Shown one piece after another: positions 1,458 to 8,691 of a stretch of DNA of 46,061 bases. Source of the DNA: an uncultured Coriobacteriia bacterium (GTDB taxonomy: Bacteria; Actinomycetota; Aquicultoria; CAYWVN01); the NCBI GenBank assembly GCA_964461725.1, contig CAYWVN010000002.1:1-46061 (forward strand), given 5' to 3'. The position numbers and the translations under genes were made by a program. The notes under the pieces are model-generated. The model did no database searches and was not told where the DNA came from. It worked only from the letters and a program-made list of their open reading frames with translations. The stretch's first letter is position 1. Each line of letters starts with the position of its first letter.

Positions 1458-1646
1458 CCCACGCCGGCCGTAGTCGCGCTTGTCCAGGCAGGCGTCGTAC
1501 GTGTCGCGGTCGATGCGGATCCAGTCGGGGCCATCGATGCCGCGCGTGTTGGCGCTCGCGGGGCTGGAAGGATAGGCGCAGGCGACCTTGATCCAGCGGT
1601 TCTGCTCCCGCGCGATCGCCTTGATCCGAAGGAACAGTGAGCCGGC
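1458..1646 (-). pseudogene. Orphan C-terminal ORF remnant (63 codons, no ATG/GTG/TTG start), family unknown
   Basis: Stop-to-stop open frame AGSLFLRIKAIAREQNRWIKVACAYPSSPASANTRGIDGPDWIRIDRDTYDACLDKRDYGRRG* with protein-like composition. It is cut off upstream by the TAG of the adjacent relic ORF and looks like the 3' end of a gene truncated at the island border. Confidence 0.3.
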
Positions 1647-1829
1647 CTACTCCACCTTCACCGCGCCGTCGTCCAGGACACGCATCGTCTGCCACTCGTA
1701 GCGCTCCTTCTCAACGGCGCGCTCGACGCTCTTCTGGAGGCGCCGGCGTACGTTCTCCTGCCAACCGCGTCCGGCCAGTGTCACTGCCCCTCGATACAGT
1801 AGCTCCACGATCCCCGACGCCAACGACAC
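1647..1829 (-). pseudogene. Relic of a second nuclease module: leader element R fused to the last 33 codons of a paralogue of gene 3786..4295
   Basis: The ORF reads MSLASGIVELLYRGAVTLAGRGWQENV then RRRLQKSVERAVEKERYEWQTMRVLDDGAVKVE. The first part is read from repeat R. The second part is about 93% nt-identical to 3786-3887. Confidence 0.7.
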
Positions 1830-1838
1830 CGCCCGCCG
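1750..1838. repeat. Repeat R, copy 1 (89 nt)
   Basis: 87 of 89 nt identical to 4868-4956, same orientation. The two mismatches are C/A in ccagtgt[C/A]actg and G/C in cagta[G/C]ctcc. Confidence 0.9.
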
Positions 1839-1870
1839 TCGGCGAGCGCGGCGTTGGGGTAGGCGTATGC

Positions 1871-2014: not shown

Positions 2015-2827
2015 ATGGCGTCGGCACGGAAGAAGCTGCCACTGAGTATGCCCCCGGTTCCCCCGGTCTTCACCGCCGACGAGTGGATCTCCGCACAGCC
2101 TGACACGCCCAGGGCAACCGCCTTTGATCGGCTGCGACGCGCCCGTCAGCGAGGATTCGTGAAGGCAATAGGGAGCGGTACCGGAGTATATGCCGTTGTC
2201 CCGCCTGGTGTCAGCGCAGAGGCGTACGTGCCAGACAAGATGGTGGCTGCCAGCAAGTTGCTGCCGGATTGCCCCGTGGCCTACCATTCTGCCCTGGAGG
2301 TGCTCGGCCGCGCGCATTCCGTAGGAATGGCGGACATAACGATGCTGTGTACGAAGCAGACGCCGCCCCGCCGGCTCGGTCCATGGAGCGTCAAGCCGGT
2401 GCGGGCTCCCCGAGCGCTTCGTGACAAGAACGCGGCGAACTTCGGCGTCACGAAGTTCAAGCGGCAAGACGGCGAGGCTCTGGTAACGAATGCGTCCCGC
2501 ACGCTCGTGGATTGCCTGGACCGCCTGGAGCTCGGAGGCGGCTTCGAAGAGGTCGTGCTGAGCCTGGAGAGCTACCCGACCGTGGATTTTGACGAAATAC
2601 TGGCGTACCTAGATCTGCTCGGGAGCCCGACAACCGTTGCGAGAGTGGGCTACGCACTCGATGCCTATGCGGAGCGCCTCTACTTCACGGACGAGGTCCA
2701 AAGCAGATTCCGGGACAGGCTGCCGTCGCGGCCCGTCTATCTGAGGCGCGAGACTCCGACACGCCTGGTAGCCAAGTGGCGCCTTCTCGTGCCGGAGAGA
2801 CTGCTCCCCGAGGAGTGGGAGGAATGA
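2015..2827 (+). CDS. AbiEi-family antitoxin / transcriptional regulator (type IV TA, abortive infection)
   Basis: 270 aa with a strong SD (GAAGGAGGAATAAGGA). It has an N-terminal wHTH-like segment (FDRLRRARQRGFVKAIGSGTGVYAVV) and a ...CPVAYHSALEVLG... core typical of AbiEi. Its stop overlaps the next start (ATGA at 2824-2827). Confidence 0.8.
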   Translation: MASARKKLPLSMPPVPPVFTADEWISAQPDTPRATAFDRLRRARQRGFVKAIGSGTGVYAVVPPGVSAEAYVPDKMVAASKLLPDCPVAYHSALEVLGRAHSVGMADITMLCTKQTPPRRLGPWSVKPVRAPRALRDKNAANFGVTKFKRQDGEALVTNASRTLVDCLDRLELGGGFEEVVLSLESYPTVDFDEILAYLDLLGSPTTVARVGYALDAYAERLYFTDEVQSRFRDRLPSRPVYLRRETPTRLVAKWRLLVPERLLPEEWEE

Positions 2828-3780
2828 GCCTTAGTCCGGCACGAATCGACCTGGCCGGCCTTGACCAGTCAACGCGGGAGAAGGTCGACCGGCTCGTGGA
2901 TGTGCTGTCCGAGGTGGCGAAGCATCCTCTGCTAGGAGAAGTGCTGGCGCTCAAGGGCGGCACCGCCATCAATCTCTTCTGGCTGGATCTCCCACGACTG
3001 TCAATCGATATAGACTTCAATTGCCTCATGGGTGCAGAAGAGCCGGCCACGGGCGGGGTCCGCCGCGAAATCGAGCTTGCTGTCAGTTCGGTGGCAAGGG
3101 CAATGGGATACACCGTGCAGATGGGTAAGGACGCTCATGCCGGCCGCAAGATCTTCCTCAACTATGTCGGGGAGGCCAGCCGCAAGACCGACAACCTGAA
3201 AGTCGACCTGAACTTCCTGATGCGGGCCAAGCTGGTCGACCTTGAGAACCGGGTGGCCAGGTGGCCCGGCGCTTCCCAGCCCCTTCCGGTGCTCCGTATG
3301 GAGGAGATATACGGTAGTAAGGTTGCAGCCCTCGTGCAGCGCACGGCGGCGCGAGATCTGTTTGACGTCTACGCGCTGCGCCACTCCGGGGTGGAGATGG
3401 ACGGCCCGCTACTGCACGCCTGTGCCGCCTTCTATCTGTCGCTGACGAAGACGTTCCCCGAGAACATGGGGGACAGAGCGCTGGAGCGCGCGGGAAGGCA
3501 CACTGATCTCGGCGATCTGGCCGGCCTGGTCAGTGCCGATTCGCTGCCGGGTCCTCGTGAGATGGCGCAGGCTGCGGTAGAGGTGATAGAGCCGATGATC
3601 GACCTCACGGGATTCGCGGCATCCTACTACCAGGCCATGAGCCGAGGCGAATACAGGCCGGAGCTGATCTTCGGCGCCTGGCCGACCGTCCTCGAGAACG
3701 CCAGGGACCATCCGGCGGGTCGCTGGAAAGCCAAGAACATCGCCGAGCATCGGGAGAAGCAGTCATCCTCCAACGCCTGA
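2824..3780 (+). CDS. AbiEii/AbiGii-family nucleotidyltransferase toxin (DUF1814)
   Basis: 318 aa from ATG 2824. The LALKGGTAINLFWLDLPRLSIDIDF signature is characteristic of AbiEii toxins. It is translationally coupled to AbiEi. Confidence 0.85.
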   Translation: MSLSPARIDLAGLDQSTREKVDRLVDVLSEVAKHPLLGEVLALKGGTAINLFWLDLPRLSIDIDFNCLMGAEEPATGGVRREIELAVSSVARAMGYTVQMGKDAHAGRKIFLNYVGEASRKTDNLKVDLNFLMRAKLVDLENRVARWPGASQPLPVLRMEEIYGSKVAALVQRTAARDLFDVYALRHSGVEMDGPLLHACAAFYLSLTKTFPENMGDRALERAGRHTDLGDLAGLVSADSLPGPREMAQAAVEVIEPMIDLTGFAASYYQAMSRGEYRPELIFGAWPTVLENARDHPAGRWKAKNIAEHREKQSSSNA

Positions 3781-3785
3781 GCGGC

Positions 3786-4295
3786 CTACTCCACCTTCAG
3801 CGCGCCGTCGTCCAGGACGCGCATCGTCTGCCACTCGTAGCGCTCTTTCTCGACGGCACGCTCGATGCTCTTCTGGAGCCGCCGGCGCTCGGCGCTCCTC
3901 GTGCGGCCGTCCAGCAGCATGACGTTCTTTATCGGCTCGCAGTCGTGCATGCCGTTGAAGACCACGTAGTCGACCGGGTGGAACATCGCCTTGGCGTCCT
4001 GCGGGTCCAACTTCAGCGGACTGCACACCGGGTCGAGCTGCCTTACCCTGGCCTTGGCCTCCTTCCGCCCGGCGTCGGTCCCCTTCTGCTGGAGCGCGGA
4101 TCTCTCGAGCTCGATCTTCTCCTCCAGCTTGTCCAGGCGCGCGATCTCCCTGTCCAGCGCGTCCATCCAGTCGGCCTCCGGTTTCTTCCTCAGGTAGATG
4201 CGGCAGTCGCTTAGGCGAAATAGCTCCGCGCAGTTGGGACAGACGCCGAAGATCTGCCGGTGCAGCGTGAAGAACCTCTGGATGTCCGACTTCAT
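3786..4295 (-). CDS. COG4741/PF10107-like protein (endonuclease related to archaeal Holliday junction resolvase), paralogue B
   Basis: 169 aa. It has an N-terminal Cys pair (CPNC), a central coiled-coil-like segment (DREIARLDKLEEKIELERSALQQK) and a C-terminal block FHPVDYVVF...LLDGRT...AVEKERYEW. Its ATG overlaps the corrected stop of paralogue A (ATGA at 4292-4295). Confidence 0.7.
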   Translation of the reverse strand: MKSDIQRFFTLHRQIFGVCPNCAELFRLSDCRIYLRKKPEADWMDALDREIARLDKLEEKIELERSALQQKGTDAGRKEAKARVRQLDPVCSPLKLDPQDAKAMFHPVDYVVFNGMHDCEPIKNVMLLDGRTRSAERRRLQKSIERAVEKERYEWQTMRVLDDGALKVE

Positions 4296-4802
4296 CGGGC
4301 CACCTCCGGCTCATAGGTGTCCCACACGACGCGTCCTTCCTCGACCGCCTTCTTGATCTGGAGCTGCGGCCCGGCCAGGCGGCTCTTCCCGGTCTTCACC
4401 TCGAGGAACACGATGCGGCTGACCGACCCCTTTCTCGCTCAGGCCCTCGAAGACCATGAAGTCGATGGGGTCGAAGAGCGACCGGCAGTCGTGGCGCTCG
4501 AAGCGGAATCCGGGCAGGCACGGGAGGAAATGCTCCACCTGCTTTCCGATGTTTGCCGCCTGCGCCTGCCGCTTGGACGTCTCGGGGATCTGCTTCTTGA
4601 GCTCCCGCAGCGCCTTCTTCCGGGCTTTGAGCTCGGCCAGGCACCGCTCGTAGGTCTCCTCGGCCGCGGGCATGAACTCGTCCAGAAAGAAGAGACCGGC
4701 GTCCTTGAGGCGCACCGGCGCCCCGCAGCACGGGCACTCCGCGAAGAACTTGCCCTCCTGGAGTTCGGTGATGACCTTGTGCGCGTCCGCTGGTTGGTTC
4801 AT
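4292..4802 (-). pseudogene. COG4741/PF10107-like nuclease, paralogue A, with an apparent +1 frameshift in a GGGG run
   Basis: ATG 4800-4802 is preceded by SD GGAGAAAGGA. The protein reads MNQPADAHKVITELQEGKFFAECPCCGAPVRL...FDPIDFMVFEGLSEKG, then the called frame degenerates (VGQPHRVPRGEDREE...). Skipping one G of the run (plus-strand cccc at 4427-4430) gives SVSRIVFLEVKTGKSRLAGPQLQIKKAVEEGRVVWDTYEPEVAR*. That tail aligns without gaps to paralogue B and restores a D...ExK motif. Confidence 0.75.
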
Positions 4803-4849
4803 GGGTGGTTCCTTTCTCCGGGGCGTGGCGTGTCCGCCGGGACCTAGTA

Positions 4850-5015
4850 TCACTTCGCCACCGGTGCACGTTCTCCTGCCAACCGCGTCCGGCCAGTGTA
4901 ACTGCCCCTCGATACAGTACCTCCACGATCCCCGACGCCAACGACACCGCCCGCCGCCCGCCGCACCGCCGGCACTCCATGTCACTTCGCCACGGGTGCC
5001 CATTCTCCTGCCACC
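4850..5015. repeat. Direct repeat of about 34 nt at 132-nt spacing (1.25 copies of a 132-nt unit containing R)
   Basis: 4850-4884, tcacttcgccaccggtgcacgttctcctgccaacc, against 4982-5015, tcacttcgccacgggtgcccattctcctgccacc: about 31 of 34 identical. A short (CCA)4(GCA)3 microsatellite follows at 5011-5031. Confidence 0.75.
4868..4956. repeat. Repeat R, copy 2 (89 nt), in the 5' leader/promoter region of paralogue A
   Basis: 87 of 89 nt identical to 1750-1838. It lies 66-154 nt upstream of ATG 4802 on the minus strand. Confidence 0.9.
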
Positions 5016-5046
5016 ACCACCAGCAGCAGCAGCGCGGGCCCCGCGG

Positions 5047-5228
5047 GGTTGTCGCAGATTGCGACAACCTTCTCCCTCAGACCCGCGCCCTGTCTGTCCA
5101 GTGAAACAGCGTGTGTTTGAGATGCCATTCTGGCACCTGAAGCCGCGCTTGAGATCGCAATTTGTGACCTCCGAACTGTTTGCCCAGCTCGCCAAGGGGA
5201 ACTTGATATCGCAAATTGCGATATCAAG
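5047..5228. promoter_or_regulatory. Three related palindromes with core TCGCA-N3/4-TGCGA (operator-like)
   Basis: 5047-5069, ggttgtcgcaGATtgcgacaacc, has perfect 10-bp arms. 5151-5171, gagatcgcaatttgtgacctc, is imperfect. 5202-5228, cttgatatcgcaaAttgcgatatcaag, has perfect 13-bp arms. All lie in the divergent non-coding region between paralogue A and the wHTH-MNT gene. Confidence 0.5.
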
Positions 5229-5276
5229 ATGCTACACTTTCACCATTTCGTAGCACGCCCGGTGCCGGCCCGGGGT

Positions 5277-5317
5277 TTGCCCCTTCGGGCAGAAGGACTG
5301 CCCCTTGGTACGTACCG
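5277..5317 (+). repeat. Repeat E, copy 1 (41-nt core, weaker similarity to about 5336)
   Basis: ttgccccttcgggcagaaggactgccccttggtacgtaccg matches 8651-8691 at 37 of 41 positions, same orientation. It contains the hairpin TTGCCC-CTTC-GGGCAA, which overlaps an alternative hairpin GGGCAG-AAGGA-CTGCCC. Confidence 0.85.
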
Positions 5318-5381
5318 TCAGCCCTTCCACGGCAGGCACCCTGACACCGCACCGGCTGAAAGGCACCTGCGTTATGGATAC

Positions 5382-5410
5382 TTGACCGGCTGATATGGCT
5401 ATGCGAGTAT
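5382..5410 (+). promoter_or_regulatory. Sigma-70-like promoter giving a leaderless wHTH-MNT mRNA
   Basis: TTGACC (5382-5387), a 17-nt spacer, then GAGTAT (5405-5410). ATG 5417 is 7 nt downstream of the -10 element and has no SD. Confidence 0.4.
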
Positions 5411-5416
5411 CCAGTT

Positions 5417-6034
5417 ATGAAGACGAGCGGGGTCGTCGAACTGCTTTTCGGATCGCCGGGGAGGGTGAAACTCCTGCGCCGTCTGGCCGAGGCCCCTCAG
5501 CCACTTTCGGGGCGGCAGGCGGCGGAGCTGGCCGGTCTTACGCATCGCGGGGCGATCCAGGCGCTCTCGGTCTTGGTCGACTTGGGGGTCGTCACGCAGC
5601 GCCAGGCCGGACGGGCCTACCAGTATGCCCTCGCGGAGAGCAACATCCTGGTGCAAGAGATCGTGCTCCCGGCTTTCGCCGCGGAAAAGCGGCTCCGTCG
5701 TATCTTGGAGGAAGACATCGTGGACCAGTTCGCCGGCTTGGCTCTGTCGCTCGTCCTCTTTGGAAGCGTCGCCAGAGGGGAACAGACGCCGCAAAGCGAC
5801 GTCGACTTGTTGGCGGTGGTTGCCAACGAGAAGGACAGAGAGACCATGGAAGAGATCGCAAGCAGCCGGGCGCCCGCGTTCCAGTCAAGATTCGGAGCGC
5901 CGCTGGCGGTGCATGTGCTCACCGTAGGCCAACTGAGAGAGAAGCGTCGCTCCCCCTTCTTGGTCGAGGCAGCCCGCGACGGCGTCGTCCTCCATGGCAA
6001 GCCGCTGAAGGAGCTGAGCCGGAGCCGTGGGTAG
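5417..6034 (+). CDS. Winged-HTH fused to a minimal nucleotidyltransferase (MNT-type antitoxin of HEPN/MNT modules)
   Basis: 205 aa. The N-terminus is wHTH-like (LSGRQAAELAGLTHRGAIQALSVLVDLGVV). The NTase motif is LFGSVARGEQTPQSDVDLL (GS-x9-DxD). Confidence 0.75.
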   Translation: MKTSGVVELLFGSPGRVKLLRRLAEAPQPLSGRQAAELAGLTHRGAIQALSVLVDLGVVTQRQAGRAYQYALAESNILVQEIVLPAFAAEKRLRRILEEDIVDQFAGLALSLVLFGSVARGEQTPQSDVDLLAVVANEKDRETMEEIASSRAPAFQSRFGAPLAVHVLTVGQLREKRRSPFLVEAARDGVVLHGKPLKELSRSRG

Positions 6035-6424
6035 TCGCAAGGTCAGGCGGGCCGGCAAGACCGATTCCGCGGTCTTCATCGGAAAGGCCGAGCAGTTCCT
6101 CGCAACCATGGAGCCGGCGCTTAGTTCCTCGCGATGGGACTCGGCGGGCCTGCAGGCTGTCCACGCGGTGATATCGGCGCCGATGCCGTAGTGGCCTACT
6201 ACTCCGGTGTCCGCAGCGCCGACAACGATCACCGGGCCGCGGTGGCAGTGCTTCAAGAGACCTTGGGGTCCAAGTCCGCGTCCGCTTCCCGGCATCTGAG
6301 CCGCGTCATCGCGAAGAAGAACGTGGTCGAGTACGAACAGCGTCGCCTGACGGAGAAGGAGGCGCGGGACATGTCGCGCGACGCGACTCGTTTCGTCTCG
6401 TGGGCCCGCGGGATGTTGCCCTAG
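6027..6424 (+). pseudogene. HEPN-domain toxin partner of the MNT, with an apparent 1-nt deletion
   Basis: GTG 6027 overlaps the MNT stop (GTGGGTAG). It opens VGSRKVRRAGKTDSAVFIGKAEQFLATMEPALSSSRWDSAGLQAVHAVISA and then hits TAG at 6189-6191. The neighbouring frame (ORF 6134..6424) continues ADAVVAYYSGVRSADNDHRAAVAVLQ..., which contains the HEPN Rx4-6H motif (RSADNDH). One base appears to be missing near 6177-6181. Confidence 0.7.
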
Positions 6425-6460
6425 GGCCGGAGTCCCTGGCGGCTACAGTATGCGACCCGA

Positions 6461-7642
6461 TCACACCACCACGAGCTCCCCGTCGGCACACACGGTCACG
6501 TTGTCGGCCACCTCGGCGAGCGCGCCCGGATTCTCCGTGTGAATCGGGATCACCCGCTTTGCGCCCACGGCGGCCGCCAGCCGGCGCAAGTCCTCAGGCT
6601 CCGCGTGCCCGCTCGCGTGGATGAACTGTGGCTCTGTCCCGTGCCGCTCGCAGAACGGCCTGAGGCAGGCGTCCGAATCCCAGTAGCCTGGCCACAGCGA
6701 CCAGACGATACCCACTCGGCTCTCATCGCCCAGCATCTCCAGCAGCTTGACCGCGAACCCGTTCGACCGCGCGATCATCACCGTCTCCGAGCGCCCGCGC
6801 TTGATCTCGTCGCGCTTGATGCCTCTGCGGCGGGCACGCTCGAGGACGAAAGCCGTGTAGAGGTCGATCACCAGCAGGCGCCCGCACCGCTTGGCCGCCC
6901 AGTATACCGAAACCAGCCGGTCGATGTTCTGTGCCGAGCAGACCGTGACGATGAGGTCAGGGTGCGACGAGAAGAGGCGGACCAGCCCGTCTTCCACGTC
7001 CGTCTCGCTGCGGCAATCGCGCGGGCTCGAGCCGAGGGTCGTACCCTCGAGGAGCAGCACGTCCACGTCGCGCGGCGGCTCGGCGACCAGCGCCTCGAAG
7101 CGCCAGCCCGTGCGGCTGTGCGAGCGCAGGTCGCCGGAGTACAGGACGCGGCGGCCGTCGGCCTTGACCAGGATCGCCCGGGAATCCGGCGCGGCGTGGT
7201 CGACAGGGATGCCGCAGATGGTGAAGGAGCCGATGGCGACAGCATCTTCGTCCGGCAGCTCGCGCATATTCCTGGGCAGCGCGGCGTCAGGGACGAAGAG
7301 GTGCGATACCTTGAGCATCTCGATTGTGCCGCGGCTGCCGTAGACGGGCACGTCCGGATGGACGTGATGCGCCAGACCGTGGTGATCCAGGTGGGCATGC
7401 GACAGCACCAGGGCCGAGAACTCGGGCACCGAACCGGCGTACAGCCCGTCGATGTCAGGGAGCACGCCTTCGGCGCGGAGCTCCTGGCCCGGGCGGCGCA
7501 TTGTGCCGCGCGGCCAGTCGCCGCCGTCAGGCTGGGCCAGCGGCATCCCGACATCGAGCAGGATGCGCTCGCCGCTGTCGGCCCGAAGCTCGACGCACGA
7601 ACCGCCGATCTGGTGTGAGCCACGATGGATGGTCAGCTGCAT
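6461..7642 (-). CDS. MBL-fold metallo-hydrolase, RNase J / beta-CASP-like nuclease candidate
   Basis: 393 aa. HxHxDH motif SHAHLDHHG. The C-terminal FIHASGHAEPEDLRRLAAAVGAKRVIPIHTE resembles the SGHA...P.HGE signature of RNase J/beta-CASP enzymes. Its start is 4 nt after the upstream stop and has no SD of its own. Confidence 0.75.
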   Translation of the reverse strand: MQLTIHRGSHQIGGSCVELRADSGERILLDVGMPLAQPDGGDWPRGTMRRPGQELRAEGVLPDIDGLYAGSVPEFSALVLSHAHLDHHGLAHHVHPDVPVYGSRGTIEMLKVSHLFVPDAALPRNMRELPDEDAVAIGSFTICGIPVDHAAPDSRAILVKADGRRVLYSGDLRSHSRTGWRFEALVAEPPRDVDVLLLEGTTLGSSPRDCRSETDVEDGLVRLFSSHPDLIVTVCSAQNIDRLVSVYWAAKRCGRLLVIDLYTAFVLERARRRGIKRDEIKRGRSETVMIARSNGFAVKLLEMLGDESRVGIVWSLWPGYWDSDACLRPFCERHGTEPQFIHASGHAEPEDLRRLAAAVGAKRVIPIHTENPGALAEVADNVTVCADGELVVV

Positions 7643-7646
7643 GTCA

Positions 7647-8582
7647 CTACTTACAGTGGATTAGGTCGCGGAACCGCTGCTTGAAATCATCCAGGTCATA
7701 GGCGGCCTGTTCCCAAAGTCCGTATCCGGCGAAGCAGCTTGTGGCGACCTTGAGCTGCGCACCCGGGCAATCCTTGGGGGATATGCTGTCGAGTTCTTGG
7801 CGCAGGATGTCCGACTCTGGGTCGTGATTGGCCAACATGAAGATGTACTCTGGCTTGTCGTCGCTGAAGCTCGTCACGCAGTTCCGCGTCGGGATCAGGC
7901 CCAGTTCGTGCTTCTGCTGGAAGACCGTGAGCAGCTCATCCTTGAGCTTGTCGACATGCGCCCGGTCGGCAAGGAACTCGCTCATGTCAGTGACGTGCTT
8001 TCTTAGGCCCGCGCTGCCACGGATCGAACCGTCACCGCATTTCAGCTCAATCAGCGCCAGCCCAACGCCGTCGGAACGCTTACGGGCGGCGGTGGTCGAG
8101 CGCCATTTCACGGCGACCATGTCGAAGCGCGCCTTGCGGTACGGGTACTCCATGTCGCAGATGAAGTAGTCAGTGGACGTCGCAGCCTTGCCGAAGTTGT
8201 TGTCTCTGACAATGAGCTGCTGGTACTCGCGCTCGTCCTTGCGGCGCTTGCCGAACCAGAGGTCCATGGCGTGCTTGAGGCGCGGGATGGCGGCGATCCA
8301 GTGGGCGGCCTCATCCTCAGTCTCGATGGCGGGTCCTGGGAGATGCCGCACGAAGTCGCGATCTGCTTCTGCAACGTACTTCTCGTCGAACACCCTCGCC
8401 GTCGGCGACTTGCGCCAGTTCTCGATTCTGAGCAGGCTGCCACCGCGGTAGTAGACGTTGAAGTAGTCGTCGCGAATCTCGAGGCACAGTGTCGAGTCCT
8501 GCTTGACGGAATCAAGGATTGGCTTCAGGCGTCCGCTCTTGAGGTCGTGCAGTAGCTTCGGGGACAGTCCACGTTTGGGCAT
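7647..8582 (-). CDS. Hypothetical protein with a PD-(D/E)xK-like nuclease signature
   Basis: The likely start is MPKRGLSPK at 8582, which has a strong SD (GGAAGGAAGAG); the track ORF extends to 8687. Motifs EREYQQLIV, RFDMVAVKW and GLALIELKCGDG fit an E...D...ExK core. The N- and C-terminal regions are unassigned. Confidence 0.55.
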   Translation of the reverse strand: MPKRGLSPKLLHDLKSGRLKPILDSVKQDSTLCLEIRDDYFNVYYRGGSLLRIENWRKSPTARVFDEKYVAEADRDFVRHLPGPAIETEDEAAHWIAAIPRLKHAMDLWFGKRRKDEREYQQLIVRDNNFGKAATSTDYFICDMEYPYRKARFDMVAVKWRSTTAARKRSDGVGLALIELKCGDGSIRGSAGLRKHVTDMSEFLADRAHVDKLKDELLTVFQQKHELGLIPTRNCVTSFSDDKPEYIFMLANHDPESDILRQELDSISPKDCPGAQLKVATSCFAGYGLWEQAAYDLDDFKQRFRDLIHCK

Positions 8583-8650
8583 CTCTTCCTTCCGTTCGGC
8601 CACGAATAGTCGGTCGCCAGCAATATACATGGCGCGTCTGACAGGCGCGG

Positions 8651-8691
8651 TTGCCCCTTCGGGCAAAAGGACTGCCTCTTGGTGCATACCG
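8651..8691 (+). repeat. Repeat E, copy 2
   Basis: ttgccccttcgggcaaaaggactgcctcttggtgcataccg matches 5277-5317 at 37 of 41 positions. It lies in the divergent intergenic region between the PD-(D/E)xK-like gene and the RhuM gene. Confidence 0.85.

Follow-up and report, generated by a model that had tools for sequence, protein, structure and literature searches.

The window analysed here is a stretch of 46,061 nucleotides (nt) of contig CAYWVN010000002.1, from an uncultured Coriobacteriia bacterium, and the feature under study is a pair of adjacent genes, hereafter A and B, found at positions 3786 to 4802 in an accessory stretch between typA and serS (Table 1). Both products belong to PF10107 (Endonuc_Holl; COG4741), and what the locus holds is a broken copy of a two-gene nuclease cassette from this known family, one that is widespread and uncharacterised. 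Gene A comprises 169 codons, a stop and one extra base. From its ATG at 4802 it reads in a single frame as far as ...FDPIDFMVFEGLSEKG (...FEGLSEKG), and its homologous continuation, SVSRIVFLEVKTGKSRLAGPQLQIKKAVEEGRVVWDTYEPEVAR followed by a stop, sits one base further on, with the shift inside the GGGG run at 4427-4430, where the first-pass annotation of this DNA had placed a one-base frameshift. When one G is removed, A becomes a protein of 169 amino acids (aa) that aligns without gaps to intact homologues of 166-172 aa, and its TGA overlaps the ATG of B (CCCG-ATGA-AG), so that the overlap of the A stop with the B start proposed earlier is seen in the corrected sequence and translational coupling is supported. 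Left uncorrected, the A product is a frameshifted protein of 163 aa ending at 4311, which has neither the strand carrying the ExK motif nor the C-terminal helix. Shine-Dalgarno-like sequences precede both starts, GGAGAAAGGA before A and GGAGG before B.

Table 1. Positions of the A/B genes and associated features in the window.
Feature	Position	Strand	Description
Paralogue A	4292..4802	minus	Predicted canonical-site PF10107 nuclease; CxxC (C23, C26), long helix, E90, D114, E134-V-K136
Paralogue B	3786..4295	minus	Intact, 169 aa; R85 at the helix-1 Glu position, D88, K102, H106, D109, D129-G-R131
ATGA overlap of corrected A stop and B start	4292..4295	minus	GGAGG 6-10 nt upstream of the ATG
GGGG run with one-base insertion in A	4427..4430	minus	Immediately before the ExK strand; the plus strand reads CCCC
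Leader repeat, 48-nt direct, two copies	4834..4881 and 4966..5013		Upstream of A; 81% identical, 132-nt spacing
Deletion remnant of a second module copy	1643..1843	minus	Far side of the AbiEi/AbiEii cassette

Against the Pfam profile of PF10107, for which the gathering score is 23.8 bits, corrected A scored 82.9 bits (E 2.8e-23, profile positions 59-157 of 159) and B 40.3 bits (E 3.7e-10), both exceeding that score, and uncorrected A reached 41.1 bits with a profile match ending at position 119. A precomputed PF10107 match was also carried by all database homologues. Family profiles built from 33 A-type and 22 B-type sequences were compared with each other by hhalign and aligned over nearly their full length (residues 20-169 of A against 16-164 of B) with a probability of 99.1% and an E value of 4e-19. 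Both results agree with the first-pass annotation, in which A and B were taken for PF10107 paralogues of the same architecture. No NCBIfam match and no meaningful PHROG match was obtained for either protein, and in PADLOC-DB v2 B had no match and A only a weak sub-threshold one to an LmuB-like coiled coil (E 0.003, 14 bits); the earlier remark that the pair is not a named system holds as far as that library reaches.

Apart from incidental mentions, PF10107/COG4741 appears in the papers found in computational predictions only (PMC1189080, PMC3045609, PMC3424549). The COG4741 archetype is a single gene whose product has an N-terminal hydrophobic segment, transmembrane or leader (PMC1189080), and the signature of the family is E-(V/I)D-E(V/I)K (Feder and Bujnicki 2005, PMC1189080). 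The two proteins of the window resemble this family by their profile scores, by the signature in A and by a minimal core of about 80-120 C-terminal residues. Unlike the archetype, they have no hydrophobic N-terminus (no hydrophobic segment was found in A or B, the maximum 19-residue Kyte-Doolittle mean being 0.86 in A and 0.71 in B), they carry a CxxC knuckle followed by a helix of about 50 residues, and they are encoded as a pair of paralogues.

The catalytic residues were compared in 75 sequences of the A family and 154 of the B family. The A protein of the window carries the complete PF10107 signature (E90, I113-D114, E134-V135-K136), and in its family the helix-1 Glu, the strand-2 Asp and the strand-3 Lys are invariant, as are the two N-terminal Cys and C106, the acidic residue at position 134 being D in 53 sequences and E in 22. 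In B, the Glu and the Lys of the signature are replaced and its two Asp are retained: D109 is present in 100% of the family and D129 in 99%, position 85 is occupied by K or R in 147 of the 154 sequences, and the position of the strand-3 Lys is variable (E, Q, K, R and others). The N-terminal C19 of B is invariant and the second Cys is found in 118 of 154. A polar set of its own is strongly conserved in B, with H106 at 100%, D88, K102 and Q141 at 99%, S143 at 98% and R130 at 85%. By profile, B is a member of PF10107, and a divergent one. Because this polar set is almost invariant, B is not a decaying copy; it would be a nuclease whose site has moved, or else a pseudo-nuclease that has been conserved as a partner.

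The first-pass annotation had aligned the ExK of A with a DGR of B, and the two motifs indeed fall at the same positions of the alignment, E134-V-K136 opposite D129-G-R131. The D..DxR pattern it offered as the hallmark of B is, on the other hand, a minority form, since the motif of the B family is D-R-x (R130 in 131 of 154 sequences) and the G130 of the window occurs in 8 of 154. Its description of B as non-catalytic was borne out in so far as the canonical Glu and Lys are replaced; with a different polar set almost invariant, the word "non-catalytic" itself is unproven.

A structural model was computed with AlphaFold2 for an intact A homologue (L001, 109-row alignment), with a mean predicted local distance difference test score (pLDDT) of 73.6. 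The order of elements in this model is a short N-terminal helix, a CxxC beta-hairpin, a confident helix at residues 45-95 and a strand-strand-strand-helix core, with strands at 106-108, 115-119 and 129-133 and a helix at 144-154. At the modest confidence of the modelled core, this succession fits the alpha-beta-beta-beta-alpha-beta arrangement expected of a PD-(D/E)xK fold, in which helix 1, the start of strand 2 and strand 3 bear the acidic residues. No match to any solved structure was returned by profile and sequence searches of PDB sequences, and Foldseek of the A-homologue model against the PDB gave nothing significant (best E 1.1). Because of this Foldseek result, it is the Pfam profile, together with published fold recognition (PMC1189080), that carries the fold assignment. 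According to the published profile relationship (PMC1189080), the family shares its superfamily and a minimal alpha-beta-beta-beta-alpha-beta core with archaeal Hjc and with YraN/UPF0102; a weak match of A to UPF0102 was obtained (E 0.18). Unlike Hjc, which is a symmetric homodimer of one gene product, A and B are the products of two paralogous genes.

The occurrence of the pair elsewhere was surveyed by scanning one genome per species with the B alignment, which returned 41 loci among 185,579 species genomes; the same genome set scanned with the single B sequence gave no match. In 37 of these 41 loci, B is immediately preceded on its own strand by an A-type gene, and the remaining four consist of one cut by a contig end, two solo B C-terminal fragments and one 405-aa protein with an A-like C-terminal domain. 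The pair was also present in every metagenome context fetched from an A or B homologue (L001, L043-L052) and on the sole IMG/VR viral contig found (L053). Its hosts belong to about ten phyla overall, archaea included, and comprise Gemmatimonadota, Acidobacteriota, many Bacteroidota, Chloroflexota, Planctomycetota, Nitrospinota, Ignavibacteria, Syntrophaceae, three lineages of the candidate phyla radiation, Bathyarchaeia and Micrarchaeota. The subfamily is rare, with 481 clusters (50% identity) at E<=0.001, and 190 at 1e-10, among 1.84 billion representatives. The spacing of the two genes is tight: of the 38 pairs listed, 33 overlap or are separated by at most 10 nt, and in 15 the overlap measures exactly 4 nt (ATGA or GTGA).

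Pairwise identities of A and of B were correlated across 35 loci (Mantel r 0.86, a value reached in 0 of 2000 permutations), and the mean pairwise identities were similar, 47% for A and 49% for B. From this correlation and these similar means it follows that A and B are under comparable constraint and move together. Damaged copies were also met in other genomes, B being frameshifted in L038 (4968-5506) and L040 (3712-3979) and A having lost its N-terminal half in L012 (4450-4740); consequently, breakage is not specific to the catalytic gene. The first-pass annotation had regarded the pair as an oddity in a family usually represented by a single gene and had called for a survey of paired occurrence. 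For the branch of PF10107 with the CxxC knuckle and the long helix, as far as these sequences tell, the survey reverses that view: a co-inherited pair is the rule, and it appears to have been spread by horizontal transfer across bacterial and archaeal phyla. No description of this paired form was found in the literature searched.

The origin of the one-base shift in A was considered in its own right. The match of a hidden Markov model of the A family to the window is split at the GGGG run into positions 1-126 and 123-166, in two frames. A frameshift at this site was found in none of the approximately 75 A homologues examined (more than 45 loci and about 40 database clusters). These are single intact open reading frames (ORFs), of 161-174 aa in the intact copies, except for the truncated copy in L012 and for copies cut by contig ends (L016); the nearest intact relative is only 55% identical. 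Support for the run was checked on assembler contigs of four runs, X1 to X4, and those of X2-X4 do not cover the site. Over 4200-4700, GGGG included, the X1 Logan contig (1033 nt, word depth 3.4) does not differ from the window, and over 4300-4916 it shows a single letter difference, which lies upstream of the A start (position 4920).

Two other interrupted genes of the window bear on this question. The HEPN partner of the neighbouring winged helix-turn-helix (wHTH)-MNT gene (6027-6424, plus strand) is split by a frameshift near 6175-6190, 1.7 kb from that of A, with ...AVHAVISAPMP and a stop in one frame and ...DAVVAYYSGVRSADNDH... in the other, and its sequence is reproduced without difference in contigs of four separate runs; genuine frameshifts therefore exist in the island. 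The gene of the TypA/BipA GTPase (typA/bipA, minus strand) is colinear apart from a single in-frame TAG at 604-606 (...ARYAA*VKELYTFEALG..., the asterisk marking the stop). This TAG is a strain variant or an assembly error and not a property of the code.

Weighing these data, we consider it rather likely that the A frameshift is a real inactivating mutation; the A-B copy of the window is then probably non-functional, with real decay as the most likely cause. Against it stand the support, which consists of a single contig of low word depth that was probably built from the same reads as the window, and the typA gene, where the A at 606 is contradicted by the X2 Logan contig, the only one covering the site, which has C and hence GAG (Glu). 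Because of this contradiction, the window must contain unsupported or variant bases. The shift in A might accordingly be read as a low-coverage sequencing or assembly error, the A-B cassette of the organism itself being intact and functional. We regard this as the less probable reading. The organism is present at a word depth of 2-6 in all runs, and the insertion lies within a homopolymer, where taking off one G restores a gap-free protein of 169 aa. Opposed to these points are the same GGGG in Logan's independent assembly of X1 and the recurrence of the HEPN frameshift in four runs; short-read indel errors, moreover, are rare in runs of four bases. The earlier opinion that a homopolymer error is the simpler explanation is thus not clearly upheld.

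The suggestion that a Gly-tRNA on GGG could re-pair perfectly one base downstream on the GGGG, so that programmed +1 ribosomal frameshifting on AAA-GGG-G would make full-length A as a regulatory device, is very unlikely indeed, because the shift is shared by no homologue, A being a single ORF in nearly all loci, and because neither a slow or stop codon follows the run (the next zero-frame codon is GTC) nor was any Rfam or structural element detected.

With respect to genomic context, the pair is flanked by AbiEi/AbiEii (2015-3780) on one side and by a wHTH-MNT/HEPN pair (5417-6424) on the other, and the defence island recognised in the first-pass annotation is accordingly a toxin-antitoxin/abortive-infection island. 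Elsewhere, the neighbours include AIPR and a restriction endonuclease-like gene (L046), an OLD-like ATPase-TOPRIM, PLD and HNH (L047), an AAA_15/21 ATPase (L043), an N6/N4 methylase and a transposase (L049), and HEPN, PemK and DUF4258/DUF2283 (L051); SIR2-HerA was also seen. These contexts suggest that defence, toxin-antitoxin or mobile genes often adjoin the pair. Across the other loci, no third gene was conserved beside the pair. In L005 and L016, and in the acidobacterial L021, L022 and L029 (about 5530-6980), B is followed on the same strand, after 20-70 nt, by a gene of about 453-470 aa that may be a lineage-specific third component. DUF2779 (PF11074) was matched by 3 of the 125 neighbour proteins scanned, and its assignment to these genes is a guess.

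The remnant on the far side of AbiEi/AbiEii is made of two pieces of the same module. Positions 1643-1748 match the final 106 nt of B (3782-3887) with 93% identity and are fused directly to 1743-1843, which are 94% identical to the leader at 4861-4961; by these identities, the remnant corresponds to a second copy of the module from which nearly all of A and B was deleted. According to our reading of the alignment, the remnant and B differ by seven coding changes, of which five are synonymous and the other two (I to V, L to V) conservative. Because these differences are mostly synonymous or conservative, the lost second copy would have diverged under purifying selection. Direct repeats of about 106 nt of the B 3' end thus flank AbiEi/AbiEii, and no integrase lies between them. 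A layout like that of the window was observed on an unrelated metagenome contig (L051, and also L052), where the last ~111 nt of B are repeated about 850 nt downstream (7382-7492 and 8359-8469, 89% identical) with the DUF4258/DUF2283 toxin-antitoxin pair between the repeats. Fragments standing alone were also noted, of the B C-terminus in L037 and L040 and of the A N-terminus in L020 (1745-1867). Taken as sequence patterns, the repeats hint that the B 3' end may be a recurrent recombination point for small cassettes.

Upstream of A, the duplicated leader noticed in the first-pass annotation is a real 48-nt direct repeat, its 32-nt core occurring twice where shuffled sequences give an expectation of 0. 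Scans of 3600-5500 gave neither an Rfam match nor a sigma-70 consensus or a terminator. A sigma-54-type promoter in the leader repeat (TGGCAGG-N5-GTGCA, minus strand) was rejected by eye, the GG-to-GC spacing being one base too long. Two further elements lie in the leader: GGTTGTCGCA-GAT-TGCGACAACC, a perfect palindrome at about 5047-5068, and an inverted repeat of 20 nt (5148-5167 and 5209-5228). Related ...ACGTTCTCCTGCC... sequences were seen on contigs of other runs, and the leader repeat may therefore be dispersed. Beyond the HEPN gene, the window carries on its minus strand, at 6461-8687, a metallo-beta-lactamase/RMMBL-type hydrolase of 393 aa, after which comes a protein of 346 aa that matches nothing in Pfam or PADLOC.

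The best explanation overall, which we favour with some reserve, is that the locus represents one copy of a conserved and horizontally mobile two-gene cassette encoding an asymmetric nuclease of genetic conflict, and that this copy has decayed. Under this explanation, A would be a small cytoplasmic PD-(D/E)xK nuclease of PF10107/COG4741, in which an N-terminal CxxC knuckle precedes a helix of some 50 residues ending with the catalytic Glu and a minimal resolvase-like core completes a predicted E...D...(D/E)xK site, and B is its ancient paralogue of the same architecture, in which another, equally conserved polar set takes the place of the Glu and the Lys. Translational coupling would supply A and B in a fixed ratio, and the two proteins may associate by means of their long helices, forming an asymmetric hetero-oligomer in which each A/B unit has a single canonical active site; a shared Cys/His metal site perhaps joins them as well. 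We infer that the enzyme would act by nicking or cutting foreign DNA or a DNA structure, and that the cassette would take part in genetic conflict, whether for defence or for addiction, and not in housekeeping repair. In the window, the one-base insertion removes the ExK strand of A, in an island that also holds the frameshifted HEPN gene and the deletion remnant of a second copy.

A heteromer made of a catalytic and a non-catalytic subunit is plausible, the indirect evidence for an A-B complex being translational coupling, the co-divergence of the two genes and the long helix that both proteins share. In XPF-ERCC1, Mus81-Eme1 and the alpha/beta tRNA-splicing endonuclease of Crenarchaeota, a catalytic subunit is likewise associated with a conserved paralogue that lacks the canonical catalytic residues. 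The A/B pair may follow the same asymmetric logic, by analogy only, the sequences being unrelated. It is also comparable to type II toxin-antitoxin and abortive-infection pairs such as AbiE and MNT/HEPN, which are likewise two small coupled genes, mobile and found in the same type of island; unlike in those pairs, the products of A and B are paralogues of each other.

Several observations weigh against this explanation. Given its strongly conserved alternative site, B might be active in its own right. In the A model, confidence in the nuclease core is only moderate (pLDDT about 60-70), the AlphaFold2 monomer model of B (22 sequences), with the same layout as A, is poor (pLDDT 60) and of low confidence, and the lack of any significant Foldseek match points the same way. 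The pair was absent from the PLSDB plasmids and INPHARED phages searched. Finally, the association with defence genes is anecdotal, being drawn from about seven contexts and a tally of the two genes nearest to the pair on either side, with no background control.

Among the alternatives as to function, a toxin-antitoxin-like addiction module, in which A would be a toxic nuclease and B a degenerate paralogue neutralising it through inactive mixed dimers or by occupying its substrate, is unlikely and yet the most serious. The loss of A in the window would then leave B as an orphan antidote. The cassette does consist of two small coupled genes that spread horizontally, it lies here between bona fide toxin-antitoxin/abortive-infection modules and elsewhere next to PemK and DUF4258/DUF2283 pairs, the gene broken here is the catalytic partner, and B has its own Shine-Dalgarno sequence. 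Set against this, B is as conserved as A and keeps its almost invariant polar site, unlike fast-evolving antitoxins, it is broken at least as often as A in other loci (L038 and L040 against L012), and no DNA-binding autoregulator domain was detected in A or B by profile scans. A housekeeping role in recombination or repair, the pair forming a bacterial Hjc-like Holliday-junction resolvase of two different subunits, is quite improbable: the distant relationship of the family to archaeal Holliday-junction resolvases (Pfam name; PMC1189080) and a minimal dimeric PD-(D/E)xK core typical of resolvases would agree with it, but the sparse and patchy distribution in the species genomes and cluster representatives, the variable flanks with no conserved repair neighbours and the broken copy in an accessory island between typA and serS do not.

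Carried further, the preferred explanation of a mobile A/B cassette leads to a bolder proposal, which we put forward as tentative and somewhat doubtful: the cassette may be a self-contained and previously undescribed conflict module of bacteria and archaea, an obligate asymmetric nuclease combining a canonical and a remodelled PD-(D/E)xK site, held together by a coiled coil and perhaps by a Cys/His metal site, and directed against invading DNA or serving addiction, with the B 3' end as a possible point of recombination or integration for small toxin-antitoxin cassettes.

The value of the broken copy of the window lies in the survey and the residue map to which it led, and in its evidence of decay and cassette turnover at this locus. 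At two genes of 170 codons each, the cassette is small enough for a cheap experimental test. PF10107/COG4741 has been a purely computational family since 2005, and if the proposed reading is true, the A/B pair could prove to be a new minimal module of immunity or addiction and a prokaryotic counterpart of XPF-ERCC1-type enzymes, with their "active plus pseudo-nuclease" design.

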